Below are positions 9,037-33,689 of a stretch of 42,390 bases of DNA, one piece after another. Positions within the stretch are counted from its first letter, which is position 1, and every line of letters starts with the position of its first letter. Position numbers and translations under genes: made by a program. The notes beneath the pieces are model-generated. The model was not told the origin of the DNA. It saw nothing but the letters and a program-made list of their open reading frames with translations, and did not search any database. This DNA is from an uncultured Methanosarcinales archaeon. Lineage in GTDB: Archaea; Nanobdellota; Nanobdellia; Woesearchaeales; WJKV01. The stretch spans positions 29,225-71,614 of the forward strand of contig CAZNVD010000004.1 in the NCBI GenBank assembly GCA_964576505.1, given 5' to 3'.

Positions 9037-9264
9037 ATGGTTGAATCTAAGTTAAAGCTATCAGTGGCAGAATTCTGGAAGGAATTTGATAATACTGTGA
9101 AAAATGGGAAACATAAAGAAATGAGCTTGAAGGAACTTGAAGCTCACATAGAAAGTATAAGAGGTTCAGTCAAGACAAAAACTACTGAAGAAGAATATGA
9201 AAGGGCACGAACTGAAGCATTTGAAGAGTTATATGGAGAATTATGTGACAAGAATTCAAAGTAA
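9037..9264 (+). CDS. Small charged hypothetical protein (antitoxin-like)
   Basis: 75 aa, ATG with TATA about 25 bp upstream; ends in ERARTEAFEELY; converges on the PIN gene. Confidence 0.6.
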   Translation: MVESKLKLSVAEFWKEFDNTVKNGKHKEMSLKELEAHIESIRGSVKTKTTEEEYERARTEAFEELYGELCDKNSK

Positions 9265-9687
9265 ATCTTCTGGTTTATGATAATTTGTAATGTCGAGTAA
9301 TTTCTTGAAATCATTGTCTCTTGTGACGAGAATAAGATTGTTATCTCTCGACAATATTGCGTGGAGTGCGTCGCCAATAGGAATTTTTCTTGTTATACTC
9401 AAGTGCGATGCTTCTTGTAGCTGTCCTCTGCCTGGAAATACTTTTAATATCTGATGTTTCAATGGATTAAGCATACTATTGATTGTATGATCAGCAACTC
9501 TTCTCCGTAATTCCTCTAATACAATATCAGACATAACTAAATTCTCTTTATTTGTAAGTATCTTCAAAACCAGCATTGAGGCATATTTTCCTAGAGGTTC
9601 ATCATGATATCCTTTCCTATCTTCGATGAGATCAATCCAGATAGAAGTATCAAAATAGTATTTATCAGTCACTATGGGTAAGGTCAA
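9256..9687 (-). CDS. PIN-domain (VapC-like) ribonuclease toxin
   Basis: YYFDTSIWID, VLEEL, GDALHA and LVTRDNDF PIN motifs; TTG start uncertain. Confidence 0.88.
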   Translation of the reverse strand: MTLPIVTDKYYFDTSIWIDLIEDRKGYHDEPLGKYASMLVLKILTNKENLVMSDIVLEELRRRVADHTINSMLNPLKHQILKVFPGRGQLQEASHLSITRKIPIGDALHAILSRDNNLILVTRDNDFKKLLDITNYHKPEDLL

Positions 9688-9718
9688 ATAGAGAATAAAA
9701 GATTAGCTGTGTTAAAAA

Positions 9719-9731
9719 TGGACTCAGTCCA
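9719..9731. promoter_or_regulatory. Palindrome TGGACT-C-AGTCCA upstream of BRE/TATA
   Basis: Perfect palindrome; TTTATAAA at 9748-9755; ATG at 9778. Confidence 0.75.
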
Positions 9732-9777
9732 AGTCTATTAGAAAATATTTATAAATGATGAGTGATACAATAGGAAC

Positions 9778-10073
9778 ATGACTGAACTGCTATTAACATG
9801 TATTATTAAAAATTAGACTGGCTTCTAAGACTTCAAACTTTTAGTGTGGTAATCACAATCAAGTCTAATTTTTAATCTGCGCAATCGCCCAAATGACAAG
9901 TCAATTGGCGATTGCGCATTATTAAGAAGGAACTCAGAGGAGGATATTCTTCGTTGTGTCCTGAGCTTGATATTGCAAGTAGAGGAGATTCTATTGAAGA
10001 AGCAAAAGAACACCTTAAGGAAGCTGTTGCTGGTCATCTCAAGGTAGCACAGGAAGAAGGAATGTTTATTTAG
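9778..10073 (+). pseudogene. hicB: HicB-family antitoxin interrupted by a 116-bp insertion
   Basis: MTELLLTC (9778-9801) joins IIKKELRGGYSSLCPELDIASRGDSIEEAKEHLKEAV... (9918-10073) to give a 59-aa HicB-fold protein. Confidence 0.85.
9802..9925. mobile_element. Double-hairpin insertion (family B copy 1) flanked by ATTATTAA direct repeats
   Basis: ATTATTAA at 9802-9809 and 9918-9925; stems ATTAAAAATTAGACT/AGTCTAATTTTTAAT and TGCGCAATCGCC/GGCGATTGCGCA. Confidence 0.75.
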
Positions 10074-10089
10074 TTGACATTTAGATAAG

Positions 10090-10515
10090 CTAAGAATCTT
10101 TCAACAACAAAAGAATTTTTCTTGTTGTAACAACAGGAATGCCTTGAAATTCTTTCAAAGTTAACAAATCTGCATCCCCACTTACAATGTAATCTGCCTT
10201 TGCACTTTCAGCACACTCTAGGAATTTGTTGTCATTTACATCTCTACAAATGTTTATCTTTATTGTTGGAGTTATAATTATGTGAGATAATGAAATTATT
10301 TTTTGCATAATTTGTGCTGGTGTTAATCCAGCATTTTTCATAACTTGATTGAACTTTGGTCTGTTAATTACGTCTTCCAACTCAGAAAGAATTTCTTTAG
10401 TAAGATAACATGTTGCCTTACCTTGTTCAATGCATTTAAGGAGTTCGGATTCATTTCCTCTCCAAAAGAAAGCTGAAATTATTGTGCTTGTATCCAGAAC
10501 TAATTTAATGGGCAT
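10090..10515 (-). CDS. PIN-family toxin (PIN_3/TIGR00305-like)
   Basis: LVLDTSTIISA, CRDVNDNKFLECA, ADYIVSGDADLL; coupled to the AbrB gene; alternative start 10524. Confidence 0.9.
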   Translation of the reverse strand: MPIKLVLDTSTIISAFFWRGNESELLKCIEQGKATCYLTKEILSELEDVINRPKFNQVMKNAGLTPAQIMQKIISLSHIIITPTIKINICRDVNDNKFLECAESAKADYIVSGDADLLTLKEFQGIPVVTTRKILLLLKDS

Positions 10516-10768
10516 TTCGTACATCCTTAATTGCCTTTATTAAGTCTGCCTTTGTCAATCCAGCCTGCTCTGCTGCTTTTTGTAATGGCTTTGCTATTTC
10601 GTCGAATGTTTTTTTAATTGCTGACTTATCAATTTTCTTTAAAATTACAGTTCCATCTTCGCCAAATATCATAAATTGATCTGACTTCTTAATTCCCATC
10701 TCTTTACGTAAAGGGGAGGGGATGACAATTTGTCCTTTTTCTGATATCTTAGTTAGTTCAACTTGCAT
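10505..10768 (-). CDS. AbrB/MazE/SpoVT-family antitoxin
   Basis: TKISEKGQIVIPSPLRKEMGI swapped-hairpin motif. Confidence 0.9.
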   Translation of the reverse strand: MQVELTKISEKGQIVIPSPLRKEMGIKKSDQFMIFGEDGTVILKKIDKSAIKKTFDEIAKPLQKAAEQAGLTKADLIKAIKDVRNAH

Positions 10769-28752: not shown

Positions 28753-29685
28753 TTATATGTTGGATACTTTGTCATTGGTAGTTGTTCCCAGAAAACCAAG
28801 ATGGCTGCCTTGAATTCCCAATATGTGATGACTTATGATTGCAAGTGAGTGAGATAGATAAATCTCAGCTGGATTTTGTTTACCGTGTTCAGCGAGACGT
28901 GTTTTCAAATCATCATAAGCTGATGAGATTTCAAGAGCTTTTTCAGGAGTCATTTGATAGATGAAATTATAACAGGAAGAAAATAAGGAGGATACTTCAT
29001 TGCAGAGGGTGCCAAAATCAGGGGAAAGAGAAGATGTTTTTGCGGCGGCAGAGTACAATACTTTAAACTGATCGCTTATTTCTTCCAGACGATGAATGGT
29101 GAGATACATACTGTAGGATCTTTGTGTGTTTGGAGCAAATCCATTTTTTGAAATCTGGCGCAGGCAGGTGTGGGTGAGTTTGTTGATTTCTTTATCCTTT
29201 GCGGCAAGTTGTTGAAGAGTTTTAAGGTCATGTTTTGCGAGAGCTGAGCTTCCATCTTCAATCAGAGTTTTTATTTGCAGAAACAGGCGACGCAAAAGAT
29301 TGCTGAATTCTTTTGGGGCAGTTCCAGTCACATCTTTCATGACAATTGTGGAAGCAGACTGATCAGTGATTTCAAATCCAAGAAGTTCATCTAAAATGCG
29401 AGTTGATTCAGGATTGTTCAGATCAGAAATTTTTGAAACTTCAATTGCATCAAAACCTAAATGGTATGCATTAATAACACTTCGATTGACCAGCCTGCCA
29501 AGAGCATGAGCATCAAATGAAGTTGATGGTCCAGTTACAGGGTTTGTTGTTCTTATGATAAGTTCCGAGCCTCTATCTTCTATGTCAATTTCCTGGTCTC
29601 CAGATAGATTAAATCTATGTGTCCATGCACTTGGCAAAGAAATGGTTAAAGTCGATGCACCTTGTTTGACTATCTTGCGTCTCAT
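28753..29685 (-). CDS. Archaeal AbrB-PhoU phosphate uptake regulator-like protein
   Basis: MRRKIVKQGASTLTISLPSAW, AYHLGFDAIEV, LLGFEI, LLRRLF, DKEINKL, LEEISD. Confidence 0.85.
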   Translation of the reverse strand: MRRKIVKQGASTLTISLPSAWTHRFNLSGDQEIDIEDRGSELIIRTTNPVTGPSTSFDAHALGRLVNRSVINAYHLGFDAIEVSKISDLNNPESTRILDELLGFEITDQSASTIVMKDVTGTAPKEFSNLLRRLFLQIKTLIEDGSSALAKHDLKTLQQLAAKDKEINKLTHTCLRQISKNGFAPNTQRSYSMYLTIHRLEEISDQFKVLYSAAAKTSSLSPDFGTLCNEVSSLFSSCYNFIYQMTPEKALEISSAYDDLKTRLAEHGKQNPAEIYLSHSLAIISHHILGIQGSHLGFLGTTTNDKVSNI

Positions 29686-29710
29686 GAAAAATTATAAAGG
29701 AACATGAGCT

Positions 29711-29813
29711 ATTAAAAATTATCGATTATATTTCGGTTTAGATAATTTTTAACGCCTCTCAATCGCTGCATTTGGTATCTAAATTTAACTGGAGAGCGAT
29801 TGCGAGTTATTTA
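29711..29813. repeat. Double-hairpin element, family B copy 2
   Basis: TTAAAAATTATC/GATAATTTTTAA then CTCTCAATCGCT/AGCGATTGCGAG; same arms and order as the hicB insertion. Confidence 0.7.
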
Positions 29814-29814
29814 A

Positions 29815-30903
29815 TTATTTACTTTTTTTCTTTACTGCTTTCTTTGCTTTGTTAGAAATGGAGGGAGTGTGGTCTCTCATGAAGGACAAGAAGAGGTCAC
29901 GATCTTTAGATTGAACTGTTGCACCGCATGCATGTGGATGACCACCACCGCTGGCATTAAGTTTTTGAACTACTGGTTCAAGGATTGAAAGTAAATCTCC
30001 ATGATATCTTAAACTCATCTTCAACTGACCGTCTTTTTTCCTTGCAACCATGACAAGTGAATCTGGATTGTGATAGAATAATTCATTGCAAAGATCAGAA
30101 GTTACAGTAAGTGTATTATTTTCATACTCGAAATAAATTAAAGTGCGATCTTCAAGTTGTCTGATCTGGGATTCTGCACTTTTTTTCAATTCAAGATATA
30201 CTTTTTCAAACATATCATATGATTGATATACAACATCCATGGATGGATTATGTCTATCCAGGATTTCACGAGGATCTTTTAATCTGGCGAAAACAGGAAT
30301 TATTTTCTTGATACGACTGACTGCATCTTTCATGAAAAATGAAACAATAGTTATGACTAAACCAAAACGAGTGTTATAACGGAAATCTTCCATTGATTTA
30401 TTCAAGTCAGGTATTAAATCAGGATATTCTTTTGCGACTTTGTCCAGAAATGGAGGGACGTAGGCATCTGAAATGCTTCCCAAGGCGCCAAGCCAATAAT
30501 CCTGGCCAACTGCTTCGCAGCAAATTGCTGAGACTGGAACATAGGCATTGTGATCTTTCAAACAAGGATTGATTGTGACATGAACAGGAAGTTTTGGATT
30601 GTGTTGATGGTGATCGATCCATACAATAGGAGCAGTAGATTGTTTAACAAATGATTCATCCAATCTTGGAATGTCGAGAATGAATATTTTGTCGGGAGCG
30701 TACTCGATTACTTTTGGAATGAAGTATGAATCTAAGGGTTTCTTTTTTACAACAATTCCATGTCCTTCTTTTTTGTATCTGTATAATAGCATGAAACTGC
30801 AGAATCCATCAGGATCATCATCAAATAAAAAAAGAGGGCGGGTGCAGCTATCTAATTCTGATCTTATTTTGTCTAAATCTTTTTGAGTAATTCCAGGAAG
30901 CAT
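29815..30903 (-). CDS. DHH/DHHA1 phosphoesterase (RecJ/NrnA superfamily)
   Basis: FDDDPDG, ILD, WIDHH, ISD, SLR, GGGHPHACGA. Confidence 0.9.
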   Translation of the reverse strand: MLPGITQKDLDKIRSELDSCTRPLFLFDDDPDGFCSFMLLYRYKKEGHGIVVKKKPLDSYFIPKVIEYAPDKIFILDIPRLDESFVKQSTAPIVWIDHHQHNPKLPVHVTINPCLKDHNAYVPVSAICCEAVGQDYWLGALGSISDAYVPPFLDKVAKEYPDLIPDLNKSMEDFRYNTRFGLVITIVSFFMKDAVSRIKKIIPVFARLKDPREILDRHNPSMDVVYQSYDMFEKVYLELKKSAESQIRQLEDRTLIYFEYENNTLTVTSDLCNELFYHNPDSLVMVARKKDGQLKMSLRYHGDLLSILEPVVQKLNASGGGHPHACGATVQSKDRDLFLSFMRDHTPSISNKAKKAVKKKSK

Positions 30904-33262: not shown

Positions 33263-33487
33263 TCACAATAATTCAAAGAATTCTTCTCTTGTGAGATTAG
33301 CTTGTTTTATTATTGACAATAATGTTTTCTTCCAGATCTCTGGATGATTTGGAATTGTAAGTCTTAGATGAGGCGGATCTTTATGACGGAGAATTATATG
33401 GCTTCCAGACTGATGGTCCAATTCATAGCCATGCTTTATGAAAATATTAACGAGTTCTTTACCCGAGAGAACTGGAAGCTTAGGCAT
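33263..33487 (-). CDS. hicA: HicA-family toxin
   Basis: MPKLPVLSGKEL...GY...HQSGSHIIL...LTIPNH.EI...TL.SIIKQA. Confidence 0.92.
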   Translation of the reverse strand: MPKLPVLSGKELVNIFIKHGYELDHQSGSHIILRHKDPPHLRLTIPNHPEIWKKTLLSIIKQANLTREEFFELL

Positions 33488-33689
33488 ATATCTCAATCAT
33501 TTCTTCCTCTATAGAAGGTATTGATTCATTATGTTTTTTTAGACTTTTTATGTAGCCTTCAATCGCATCCTTAAGATTAGTTACTGCTTCATTTCGCGTA
33601 TTTCCCTGAGATATGCATCCTGGCAGAGAAGGACATTCTGCTACAAAATGACCTTCTTCATCCTTTTCAATGAATACTCTGAATTTCAT
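33480..33689 (-). CDS. hicB: HicB-family antitoxin
   Basis: MKFRVFIEKDEEGHFVAECPSLPGCISQGNTRNEAVTNLKDAI. Confidence 0.92.
   Translation of the reverse strand: MKFRVFIEKDEEGHFVAECPSLPGCISQGNTRNEAVTNLKDAIEGYIKSLKKHNESIPSIEEEMIEIYA

Follow-up and report, generated by a model that had tools for sequence, protein, structure and literature searches.

A hairpin-rich mobile repeat interrupts an orphan hicB-like gene in an uncultured Woesearchaeota-like archaeon

Classical miniature elements (MITEs), such as the Correia elements and the SM elements of Sulfolobus, are bounded by inverted repeats that run from end to end, and a DDE transposase determines their target duplication. REPINs, which occur in bacteria, are symmetric doublets of a single repeat, and the associated RAYT gene is single-copy and REP-flanked. 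Elements of the IS200/IS605 type excise precisely. Gene-less derivatives of IS200/IS605 have been described in Haloquadratum walsbyi as PATEs; these lack terminal inverted repeats, have near-terminal palindromes and a short fixed targeting sequence, and are too short for a transposase (PMC3119063).

We analysed a stretch of 42,390 nucleotides (the window) from an uncultured groundwater archaeon, in which a hicB-like gene is cut in two by a hairpin-rich repeat. The insert is one copy of a dispersed non-coding mobile repeat that has spread through Woesearchaeota-like DPANN archaea. The repeat family belongs to a known type of selfish DNA but is itself as yet undescribed; we found a description of it neither in Rfam nor in the available text of the literature searched.

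The hicB-like gene lies on the plus strand and begins with the ATG at 9778. A TATA-like box (tttataaa, 9748..9755, plus strand) that may act as its promoter is located 22 nt 5' of this ATG, and the 8 orthologous loci compared have a box of the same type about 24 nt 5' of their ATG. The 5' fragment (9778..9809) consists of codons 1-10 plus 2 nt and ends in the first of two copies of ATTATTAA, which can be read directly in the sequence at 9802..9809 and, with a period of 116, at 9918..9925. The 3' fragment (9918..10073) contributes 51 codons plus a stop (TAG, 10071-10073). The insert carries in a TAG at 9814..9816 of the plus strand, in frame with the ATG, and the frame is also shifted because 116 is not a multiple of 3. 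The sole plus-strand entry in the ORF listing of this region is a 53-aa ORF that starts with TTG (9912-10073), so an ORF caller would miss the hicB-like gene.

When 9778-9809 was fused by script to 9926-10073, with removal of 116 nt, a 59-aa ORF was obtained that aligns without gaps to P0001, an intact and uninterrupted 59-aa homologue used as reference (residues 1-59 to 1-59, 44/59 identical). The 3' fragment by itself is 75% identical to P0001 along its whole length (100% of the query). The 8 best orthologous loci, all from DPANN archaea, are uninterrupted, and the joined ORF aligns with every one of them over residues 1-57/58, with 37-45 of 57-58 residues identical. Its 12 N-terminal residues agree with the orthologue motif M-x-E-L-I-L-T-C-I-I/V-K-K, and intact homologues begin at M-x-E-L, 9 codons 5' of the junction, not at the TTG at 9912. 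The original prediction, a gene missed by the ORF track, split by a 116-bp insert between 8-bp direct repeats with an in-frame TAG and a frame shift, and restored by removal to a 59-aa HicB, is therefore borne out. Neither outcome that it named as a refutation was observed, since the joined protein aligns end to end and intact homologues start upstream of that TTG, and the uninterrupted orthologues that it proposed to look for were found. The insert junctions recur with 0 differences in independent Logan contigs of 4 runs from a single study, one of which may be the window's own source, so the insert is not an artefact of MAG assembly; together with the colinearity with orthologues, these contigs rule out chance or assembly error as its origin. 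The precise empty junction that the original prediction proposed to look for was not found in the contigs of these 4 runs (depth 2.6-6.2; contigs drop rare variants). A close orthologue from the same family, from which an empty hicB site could be read at the DNA level, was not found either, the best non-self match having 39% identity.

The likeness of this gene to the HicB of HicAB modules (PF15919 / PF21748) consists of a similar N-terminal domain, at E 1e-4 to 3e-3. P0001 matches the PF15919 HicB_lk_antitox and PF21748 UPF0150 profiles with 22.5 and 22.8 bits (E ~1e-4, from profile position 4), and the 3' fragment matches HicB_lk_antitox with 18.2 bits (E 0.003, profile positions 12-54), all of them short of the 27 and 27.3 bits that are the curated cut-offs for these profiles. 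In the orthologues the HicA gene comes next: a 78-79-aa ORF lies directly 3' of hicB in 6 of the 8 best ones, and the sole ORF of these that was scanned is a HicA_toxin match at 69.7 bits. Seven of the 8 are 92-94 aa long, compared with 59 aa for the joined ORF. The window copy, in contrast, is not only interrupted but is also without the C-terminal third (roughly 34 residues) and without an adjacent hicA; 16 nt past its stop a PIN gene begins on the opposite strand. The genome to which the window belongs has 3 hicA genes, all at other sites, and when the DNA 3' of 10073 was searched by local alignment in six frames for traces of hicA or the C-terminal part of HicB, the scores were 19-36 only and were taken as noise without a formal control. 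Since there is no adjacent hicA in the window, we file the gene as an orphan hicB remnant and not a working HicAB module. It is an ordinary dead gene, already orphaned by the loss of its toxin partner and C-terminal third. The earlier statement that it has no other visible lesion thus holds against the 59-aa P0001 but fails against the 92-94-aa orthologues.

Two hairpins make up the insert. The inverted repeat at 9805-9824 / 9857-9876 is 20 nt long and 90% complementary with a perfect 15-bp core, and that at 9878-9889 / 9907-9918 is 12 nt long and 100% complementary; both overlap the ATTATTAA direct repeats. Our repeat search found no inverted repeat linking the two ends of the insert, in agreement with the original prediction of 15-bp and 12-bp hairpins without end-to-end TIRs. 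The ATTATTAA pair is missing from the output of this repeat search, probably because runs of 3-base units are left out of it. As RNA, the region 9795-9935 folds at -40.6 kcal/mol (z = -5.88), a stability reached by 0 of 200 shuffles. With bounds taken from other copies, the family unit occupies 9803..9922 on the minus strand, and these 120 nt are the 116 nt of extra DNA plus the 4 nt (ATAA/TTAT) held in common with the target. Read on that strand, a unit consists of ATAA(C/T), hairpin A, a G-rich spacer of 2-4 nt, hairpin B and a TAATAA end; here it reads ATAAT, hairpin A, CAG, ATTAAAAATT, hairpin B and AATTTTTAATAA, the spacer being GG in most copies of the family. Hairpin A (9878..9918, minus strand) has perfect 12-bp arms whose letters vary between copies with the pairing kept. 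The outer 10 bp of hairpin B (9805..9876, minus strand), ATTAAAAATT / AATTTTTAAT, are invariant across the family, and a T5 run follows the stem whichever strand is read. In an alignment fitted to the covariance model, 98% of the cells in the family's hairpins are paired, against 38-54% when partners are slid by 1-3 columns, and in the same alignment 9 of 9 pairs of hairpin A vary on both sides by compensatory changes. The element is antisense to the hicB-like gene and its site falls in codons 9-11, the target ATAA being the TTAT within ATT-ATT-AAG of the hicB coding strand. At 116-120 nt here and 85-200 nt in other members, the unit is too short to encode a transposase.

A covariance model built from the copies of this genome scores the unit at 9803..9922 with 120.4 bits (E 4e-22). 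The genome-wide search that the original prediction had called for yielded 5 loci at E ≤ 4.5e-10, the window insert and four more, together with a degenerate sixth copy at E 1.8e-4. One of these copies, 102 nt long and intergenic, is in the window itself at 29709..29810 on the minus strand (86 bits, E 1e-14), where it starts 5 nt past the stop of a DHH-family gene (29815-30903, minus strand) and leaves 23 nt between its end and the start codon (ATG) of a PhoU-like gene (28753-29685, minus strand). The copy in hicB is flanked on its 3' side by a PIN-domain gene (9256..9687, minus strand) and lies 167 nt 3' of the PIN_3 stop of a co-directional MazE/AbrB-like and PIN_3 gene pair (10090..10768, minus strand). 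Mean column identity among the copies of this genome is 59%, and no near-identical sister copy was found. The copies are old and diverged, and the one in hicB is probably immobile now. Of the original proposal of a recent non-autonomous insertion with target duplication, the copy of a dispersed non-coding repeat stands, but the low identity and the lack of a sister copy give no backing to "recent" and, as discussed below, the constant ATAA ends fit insertion without a duplication equally well.

Other Woesearchaeota-like genomes contain about 25 loci with a common plan, namely ATAAC, hairpin A, GG, GATTAAAAATT, hairpin B and AATTTTTAATAA; this plan is present in 25 of the 80 genome-contig loci inspected (out of 95 matching stretches). 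The model built only from copies of the window's genome matches outside loci at E 1.4e-8 to 9e-3. Of the 401 genomes of the order, 10 contain the exact pattern and 0 a reversed-pattern control. BLAST gave about a dozen matches to the element portion in each of two genomes, G402 and G418, and 4 further element loci in a third, G050, at 84-96% identity. One contig, C22, begins inside an element copy. Copies are usually located just behind stop codons: in 5 of 25 a long ORF is terminated by the TAA that ATAAC contains, and in 4 more an ORF ends ≤40 nt upstream. One unit in G050 follows directly on the TAA that stops a conserved AAA-ATPase gene (...M-F-G-stop); in 3 of 3 orthologous loci examined this gene has an identical end and no element, a filled and empty comparison that fits insertion beside a fixed motif, with or without a 4-bp duplication. 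A metagenome scan returned the family plan in 1 of 75 loci (L156), the other 74 being A/T-rich chance matches or other repeats, and none of 8 matches in viral contigs had the plan. The hairpin-B arms alone were discarded as a search pattern, as all 53 matches, mostly from Bacteroidota and cyanobacteria, were unrelated heptamer palindromes of the AATTAGG type without hairpin A. There were 0 Rfam matches at the gathering score across the whole window, and a search of 7 element loci at E ≤ 1 gave one chance-level match (E 0.51, in L264). The flanks of the copies are unrelated, and no recurring protein family was found among 212 ORFs flanking 31 loci: two-member clusters join two loci each, and the sole three-member cluster is composed of ORFs that overlap the element.

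With classical MITEs the element has in common a length of about 100-150 nt and a non-coding, multi-copy, foldable, often intergenic and sometimes gene-disrupting nature; its ends, however, are not inverted repeats, and the flanks beyond ATAA rarely agree. Like REPs and REPINs it is a short, structure-conserved hairpin unit found behind genes, and the movement of REPs has been attributed to a domesticated Y1 enzyme, but neither a RAYT-like arrangement nor a symmetric doublet was seen with it. The PATEs too lack terminal inverted repeats and protein capacity, have palindromes at or near both ends, a fixed flank motif of 4-5 nt and a conserved oligonucleotide at the other end, and occur as heterogeneous copies within a genome (PMC3119063). 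Unlike PATEs, the element has two outer hairpins that are dissimilar and abut its ends, and its hairpin B is clamped by the invariant A/T-rich outer stem. Further differences are that only some members (L280, L246 and L255) show similarity to IS200 ends, in their inner hairpins, and that the window's genome has no detected Y1 or TnpB gene.

We searched this genome with profiles for the Y1 transposase (PF01797) and TnpB (PF07282). No Y1 transposase was found in it (97% complete, 81 contigs; an unassembled copy is possible) or in any of the 8 genomes of its family, itself included, although 126 of the order's 401 genomes have PF01797 matches, a tally that includes one unpublished genome (G319). 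Among the other carriers of the element, Y1 is found in G050 and G418 and was not found in G402 (76% complete), G311, G095 or G423. TnpB gave no match above the cut-off in the window's genome or in G050, and the family's end motifs were present at 0 of 30 Y1 loci of the order. IS200-like insertion sequences occur in the same order, an example being a 544-bp element in G050, present in 2 identical copies and encoding a 142-aa Y1 transposase, which sits after TTTATT and ends in TTTATT. It resembles the family in having a TTTATT/TTATT flank with the same letters at its right tip, an arrangement that gives apparent direct repeats without duplication. It also has hairpin-rich ends, and a short GGGTTTAATACCCCGG motif with a hairpin that recurs in the hairpin-B interior of L280. 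In addition to encoding a transposase, it differs in having the same hairpin at both ends, 15-19 nt from the cut sites, and in having no ATTAAAAATT clamp. The ends of IS608-type elements likewise have a geometry unlike that of our element, whose hairpins abut the cut sites and differ from each other. A profile of four IS200 left ends finds matches inside hairpin B in L280 (E 7e-4), L246 (E 2e-3) and L255 (E 0.038), compared with a best match of E 3 in a 374-kb control sequence, and identities of 15-17 nt link the IS200 end hairpins with the inner hairpins of L280 and L246. The IS200 right-end profile had no match in hairpin A. Because the window copy itself shows no similarity to IS200 ends (p 0.97 and 0.76), the link to IS200 passes through other family members only.

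From these comparisons, we consider it likely that the insert is a non-autonomous, palindrome-associated, IS200/IS605-like element that inserts beside ATAA (TTAT on the plus strand of the window) and that hit an already orphan hicB. A Y1 (HUH) transposase supplied in trans would act on the single-stranded hairpin ends, cutting after a fixed motif of 4-5 nt that stands both at the left flank and at the right tip of the element, so that no real target duplication would be produced. The ATTATTAA pair would then be the target motif plus the terminal motif of the element, the 3-4 extra matching bases being due to chance or to a wider target preference. With the unit inserted next to ATAA within hicB codons 9-11, translation of hicB ends after 12 codons (TAG 9814), the frame is shifted beyond, and the T5 run after hairpin B should terminate archaeal transcription of the gene. 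As hicB was already an orphan, the insertion was most likely neutral.

An alternative that we think unlikely is a classical cut-and-paste miniature element with a DDE-type transposase that prefers an A/T-rich site (ATAA or the longer TTAATAAT), for which the 8-bp ATTATTAA would be a true duplication at this site. The repeat is indeed perfect over 8/8 nt, more than the 4 nt of the family motif require, ATAA is found at both ends of nearly all copies, as duplication of a preferred 4-bp site would give, and the window's genome has no Y1 transposase that we could find. Similarity between copies, however, begins at ATAAC and ceases at TAATAA; the left end is ATAAC or ATAAT and the right end TAATAA in 17 of 18 aligned copies each, the exception in both cases being one copy of the window's genome with G for the last A. 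On the hairpin-B side, 7 of the 8 bases of the repeat belong to the invariant part of the element in 17 of 18 aligned copies, so the target was not their source. Only ~7 of 29 copies (manual count) have the left-hand C again behind the right-hand ATAA, which excludes a duplication of 5 bp or more as a family rule. To this can be added the lack of an inverted repeat between the two ends and of any candidate transposase recurring beside copies. Judged by the letters at the ends, a duplication could be at most 4 nt, and the ATAA ends fit a 4-bp duplication or a fixed ATAA without duplication equally well; the best reading is that the 8-bp "target duplication" is mostly the constant end motif of the family.

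The positions of the copies bear on another possibility, to which we give only a slight chance: that the unit is a host-useful module that also spreads, a putative portable bidirectional terminator or small structured RNA behind genes, and that the hicB site is simply its usual place 3' of the minus-strand MazE/PIN operon. Of 25 copies, 9 are found no more than 40 nt past a co-directional ORF, and several lie between convergent ORFs. An A-run and a T5 run frame each hairpin in most members, placing T5 after a stem on either strand, the stem covariation and recurring C-U-N-A-A-G loops resemble constraint at the RNA level, and the window copy sits 167 nt past the minus-strand PIN_3 stop, before the next PIN gene. 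Purifying selection on any ATAA-targeting selfish insert, however, would also leave copies behind stop codons, hairpin A of the copies in the window's genome has no T-run, and the patchy spread of the exact pattern through the order speaks against an essential role. It is very improbable that the insert is removed or skipped and full HicB still made, by bulge-helix-bulge splicing, by a DNA-excision switch or by ribosomal bypass between ATT-ATT-AA sites. Such a reading would make sense of the promoter-like box and the two intact ORF halves, the identical 8-nt sites could be take-off and landing sites or excision junctions, and elements of the IS200/IS605 type do excise precisely. The archaeal bulge-helix-bulge has two 3-nt bulges with a 4-bp helix between them and flanking helices at the exon-intron junctions, but the best candidate from a script that covered 9 equivalent junction placements in 16 bulge registers each has the 4 central pairs and none in either outer helix. 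In bypass of the phage T4 gene 60 type the take-off and landing codons match, the take-off codon is followed at once by a stop, and the gap is short (~50 nt); here matched ATT-ATT-AA sites are present, but the TAG comes two sense codons after the repeat and the gap is 116 nt, unlike known bypass sites. No ribozyme or intron family was matched in Rfam, no Y1 transposase was found in the genome that could excise the insert, and there is no nearby hicA in need of control, so the excisable switch or intron entertained in the original prediction is not supported.

If the IS200/IS605-like reading is extended to the family as a whole, a tentative and unlikely picture is that of a distinct DPANN-specific class of IS200/IS605-like passengers, with end hairpins in A-run/T-run clamps, that park behind stop codons (ATAA being xxA-TAA) and act as portable two-way terminators; lineages with Y1 could restore genes like hicB by precise excision. 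The genomes concerned have almost no intergenic space.

For the hicB locus itself the meaning of these findings is small, as a truncated, orphan antitoxin gene was struck by selfish DNA. The by-product is a compact and recognisable repeat family (ATAAC ... GATTAAAAATT ... AATTTTTAATAA) in several Woesearchaeota-like genomes. Such inserts will lead gene callers to miss or split genes, and they are places at which assemblers break contigs. If the IS200-type link is true, the family would offer a simple system for single-strand transposition and stop-codon-adjacent targeting in DPANN archaea, and it may mark transcript ends in the genomes that carry it.

The hicB-like gene, as read from the sequence, starts with an ATG at 9778 (+) and ends with a stop codon at 10071–10073 (+). 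Its frame is broken between two copies of the direct repeat ATTATTAA (9802–9809 and 9918–9925), which lie 116 nt apart. The reading frame from this ATG meets a TAG at 9814–9816 (+), and the only ORF listed on this strand at the locus is a 53-aa frame from TTG 9912. A repeat search found two inverted repeats that fill the insert and overlap the direct repeats. These form the arms of hairpin B (9805–9824 and 9857–9876; 20 nt, 90% complementary with a perfect 15-bp core) and of hairpin A (9878–9889 and 9907–9918; 12 nt, perfect), and no inverted repeat connecting the two ends of the insert was detected. Sequence and repeat search thus agree with the description given in the original prediction, which listed the repeats, the TAG, the hairpins and the lack of end-to-end terminal inverted repeats. 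The RNA fold of 9795–9935 has a predicted energy of −40.6 kcal/mol (z = −5.88), and none of 200 shuffles was equally stable.

The joined ORF (9778–9809 plus 9926–10073, translated by script) encodes 59 aa that align without gaps, residues 1–59 to 1–59, to the uninterrupted homologue P0001, with 44 of 59 positions identical. P0001 is the single protein matched by the 3' fragment in a large protein collection (59 aa, 75% identity, 100% query coverage). A scan of species-representative genomes gave 386 pattern matches and 216 confirmed relatives, of which 80 were retained; the best eight (L012–L019) come from Woesearchaeota, Aenigmatarchaeota and Nanoarchaeia-type MAGs, some carrying the depositor label Methanosarcinales. 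All eight lack the interruption, have a common M-x-E-L-I-L-T-C start and match the joined ORF at 37–45 of 57–58 residues. Since this shared start lies upstream, intact homologues do not begin at TTG 9912, and the prediction of an interrupted hicB with a colinear joined product is upheld by both the P0001 alignment and the eight orthologues. The window and the orthologues share a tttataaa box 22–24 nt upstream of the start codon.

The HicB label is due mainly to gene context in the orthologues; matches to Pfam HicB_lk_antitox and UPF0150 are weak (E 1e-4 to 3e-3, every score under the curated cut-off). In six of the eight, a 78–79-aa ORF lies directly 3' of the gene, and the single one scanned is HicA_toxin (69.7 bits). 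Seven of the eight orthologues are 92–94 aa long, while the window gene and P0001 both stop at residue 59. An opposite-strand PIN gene starts 16 nt beyond the hicB-like stop in the window, and none of the three hicA genes of G000, the genome containing the window (on contigs C28 and C62 and at C4:62517–62687, which is window 33293–33463), adjoins the split locus. The window gene is already a remnant, without its C-terminal part and hicA. The claim that the gene bears no other visible lesion is therefore valid relative to a short homologue of the P0001 type, but not relative to the 92–94-aa orthologues with hicA. The orthologue at L015:2947–3189 (labelled uncultured Methanosarcinales) is also short, with 62 aa from the shared start and no downstream hicA, so that loss of the toxin and C-terminus occurred more than once. 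Elsewhere, window 33293–33683 (−) holds an apparently intact hicB-like and hicA pair, with HicA scoring 63 bits at C4:62517–62687 and a HicB-like match at C4:62755–62907 (38% identity to P0001). Toxin-antitoxin parts are clustered around the split gene (9256–10768): a PIN gene at 9256–9687 (−) with no obvious antitoxin upstream, and a PIN_3 gene at 10090–10524 (−) that overlaps a MazE/AbrB-like gene at 10505–10768 (−).

BLAST and pattern scans of G000 (1.31 Mb, 81 contigs, 38% G+C, 97% complete) revealed further units with both hairpins in the same order, A then B on the minus strand, bearing out the proposal that a non-autonomous element had inserted. Copies lie at window 29709–29810 (−), with a DHH-family and a PhoU-like gene on either side, at C5:57145–57261, at C16:10822–10925 and at C22:1–80, where the contig end cuts the unit; a degenerate copy is found at C17:6417–6531 (covariance model E 1.8e-4). 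A covariance model built from five G000 copies scores those same five at E 4e-22 to 4.5e-10. The stems persist, the loops are unalignable, and compensatory changes affect 5 of 23 predicted pairs in five G000 sequences. Mean column identity is only 59%, which does not support a "recent" insertion. Contig C22 starts inside hairpin A of its copy, suggesting that assemblies break at the repeat and that MAGs show fewer copies than exist. The copy at 29709–29810 begins 5 nt past the stop of the DHH/DHHA1 gene, and 23 nt separate the end of its TTTTTAATAG tip from the ATG of the PhoU-like gene. A TATA box driving a leaderless transcript would lie at this distance, so the element may provide a promoter for the PhoU-like gene. 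A second short repeat in G000 (about 38 nt, ATAACGAAGAGCTTTAAATTTTAATAATTATTTGTAAA-like) also starts with ATAAC and occurs at least three times (C7:28344–28374, C13:1610–1683 and C13:11101–11177).

Outside G000, the G000-derived model gave one match among 60 relatives, in the archaeal genome G050. A wider scan of genome contigs with the hairpin-B arms plus the preceding G (GATTAAAAATT ... AATTTTTAATAA) yielded 95 stretches; 80 loci were examined by eye, and 25 had the full plan of ATAAC, hairpin A, GG, GATTAAAAATT, hairpin B and AATTTTTAATAA, all from Woesearchaeota-like or unclassified archaeal MAGs. Foreign copies are scored by the G000-only model at E 1.4e-8 to 9e-3. One of 75 metagenome matches (L156) and none of eight viral contig matches belonged to the family. 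The exact pattern occurs in 10 of 401 sampled genomes of the order, G000 counted, and in none of the seven other genomes of G000's own family; the reversed pattern occurs in none of the 401. These counts are too low, because BLAST with one G050 copy found about a dozen matches to the element portion in G402 and as many in G418, together with four additional G050 loci (84–96% identity), in a tally that includes the unpublished genomes G408 and G422. The hairpin-B arms alone failed as a family marker, their 53 matches all being heptamer palindromes with no relation to the family, the majority in Bacteroidota and cyanobacteria. These palindromes (L099–L151; AATTAGG, AATTAAG or AATTAAA), several per genome in Chitinophagaceae, Saprospiraceae, Sediminibacterium and others, are clearly a separate repeat family.

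Across 18 aligned sequences, the blocks TTAAAAATT and ATTTTTAATA do not vary, and the 5' ATAAC and the bases flanking both blocks are nearly invariant. In a 14-sequence alignment fitted by the model, 98% of cells pair, against 38–54% with partners slid by 1–3 columns; model fitting favours pairing, but the slid controls come from the identical alignment. Hairpin A in this alignment has changes on both sides in all nine pairs; in hairpin B the outer 10 bp do not vary and the inner three pairs covary. In longer members, both modules contain inner hairpins whose loops read C-U-N-A-A-G. Within hairpin B (for example L256:1501–1556 and L280:1167–1235), a 5' arm TCGCA or TCGGA has two possible partners: a nearby complement, which produces a small hairpin (loop UAAA or UGAA), and a distal one that closes the whole module. 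Such mutually exclusive predicted helices are reminiscent of a switch or of guide/cleavage-site pairing.

Similarity between near-identical copies begins exactly at ATAAC and stops at TAATAA, with unrelated flanks, and among 31 loci no protein family is repeatedly found next to the element; the few small clusters join just two loci each or represent ORFs overlapping the element. At the sequence level, shared boundaries with unrelated surroundings indicate spread by transposition and not by segmental duplication. In 5 of 25 copies the TAA within ATAAC is the stop codon of a long ORF (94–390 codons); four further copies have a co-directional long ORF ending at most 40 nt upstream, and in several a convergent ORF ends within 40 nt of the opposite element end. 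One G050 unit begins immediately past the GGA-TAA of a conserved AAA-ATPase gene, which in other genera ends in M-F-G-stop with no element (3 of 3 orthologous loci; G232, G424 and G326). Of the copies seen, only that in hicB falls within a reading frame. Its minus-strand placement, 167 nt past the co-directional MazE/PIN_3 pair on the downstream side and upstream of another PIN gene, is nevertheless the usual one for the family.

Nearly all copies have ATAA at both ends, but in only about 7 of 29 is the base after the right-hand ATAA the same as the left-hand C, so that a duplication of at least 5 bp is not the family rule; a 4-bp duplication and no duplication would give the same sequence picture. 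Of the eight repeated bases, seven on the hairpin-B side of the hicB copy belong to the element's invariant sequence. The ATTATTAA repeat is best explained by a target motif at one junction and the element's terminal sequence at the opposite one, and the additional identity may reflect chance or a wider site preference. The target duplication originally proposed is not supported.

Palindrome-associated transposable elements (PATEs), gene-less derivatives of IS200/IS605, and their parents are described as having near-terminal palindromes, a 4–6-nt targeting sequence and a conserved terminal oligonucleotide, with copies that are heterogeneous and with neither terminal inverted repeats nor a duplication (PMC3119063), a description that the features of this family fit. 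Genes for the Y1 (HUH) transposase of this type are widespread in the order, occurring in 126 of 401 genomes (unpublished G319 included). G050, which also carries the repeat family, contains a minimal IS200-like element of 544 bp that encodes a Y1 transposase of 142 aa and is present as two 100% identical copies (L323 and L324, 1422–1965, on G050 contigs C22 and C31), each flanked by TTTATT and ending in TTTATT. TTATT also precedes hairpin B of the repeat in the opposite orientation. A profile of four IS200 left ends matches the hairpin-B interior of L280 (E 7e-4), L246 (E 2e-3) and L255 (E 0.038), all in this opposite orientation, the best match in a 374-kb control being E 3; the end hairpins of two G418 IS200-like elements are identical over 15–16 nt to inner hairpins of L280 and L246. 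On the other side, a right-end profile matched nothing in hairpin A, none of 30 Y1 loci had the family's end motifs, no Y1 transposase was found in G402, G311, G095 or G423, nor in G000 or seven other genomes of its family, and no similarity to IS200 ends could be detected in the window's own copy. We therefore have high confidence that the insert is a non-autonomous mobile repeat, but, if so, whether it is of IS200/IS605 type and moved by a Y1 enzyme is about evenly balanced.

The insert had also been proposed to be a switch or intron-like element. No bulge-helix-bulge motif was present across all equivalent junction placements. In a single groundwater study, the contigs of four runs all contain the insert with no differences, and no contig joint in those runs skips it, which shows that the insert is present and not that an empty allele is absent. 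The switch or intron reading is not supported. Ribosomes might alternatively bypass the insert, but its layout is at odds with the known cases. The A-run/stem/T5 layout and the placement of copies behind genes suggest that the mobile repeat is a candidate terminator or small RNA. The element has no match in Rfam, and a description of the family was found neither there nor in literature searches of listings and passages. The split hicB locus is itself ordinary; the repeat family seems to be undescribed and is of a known kind.
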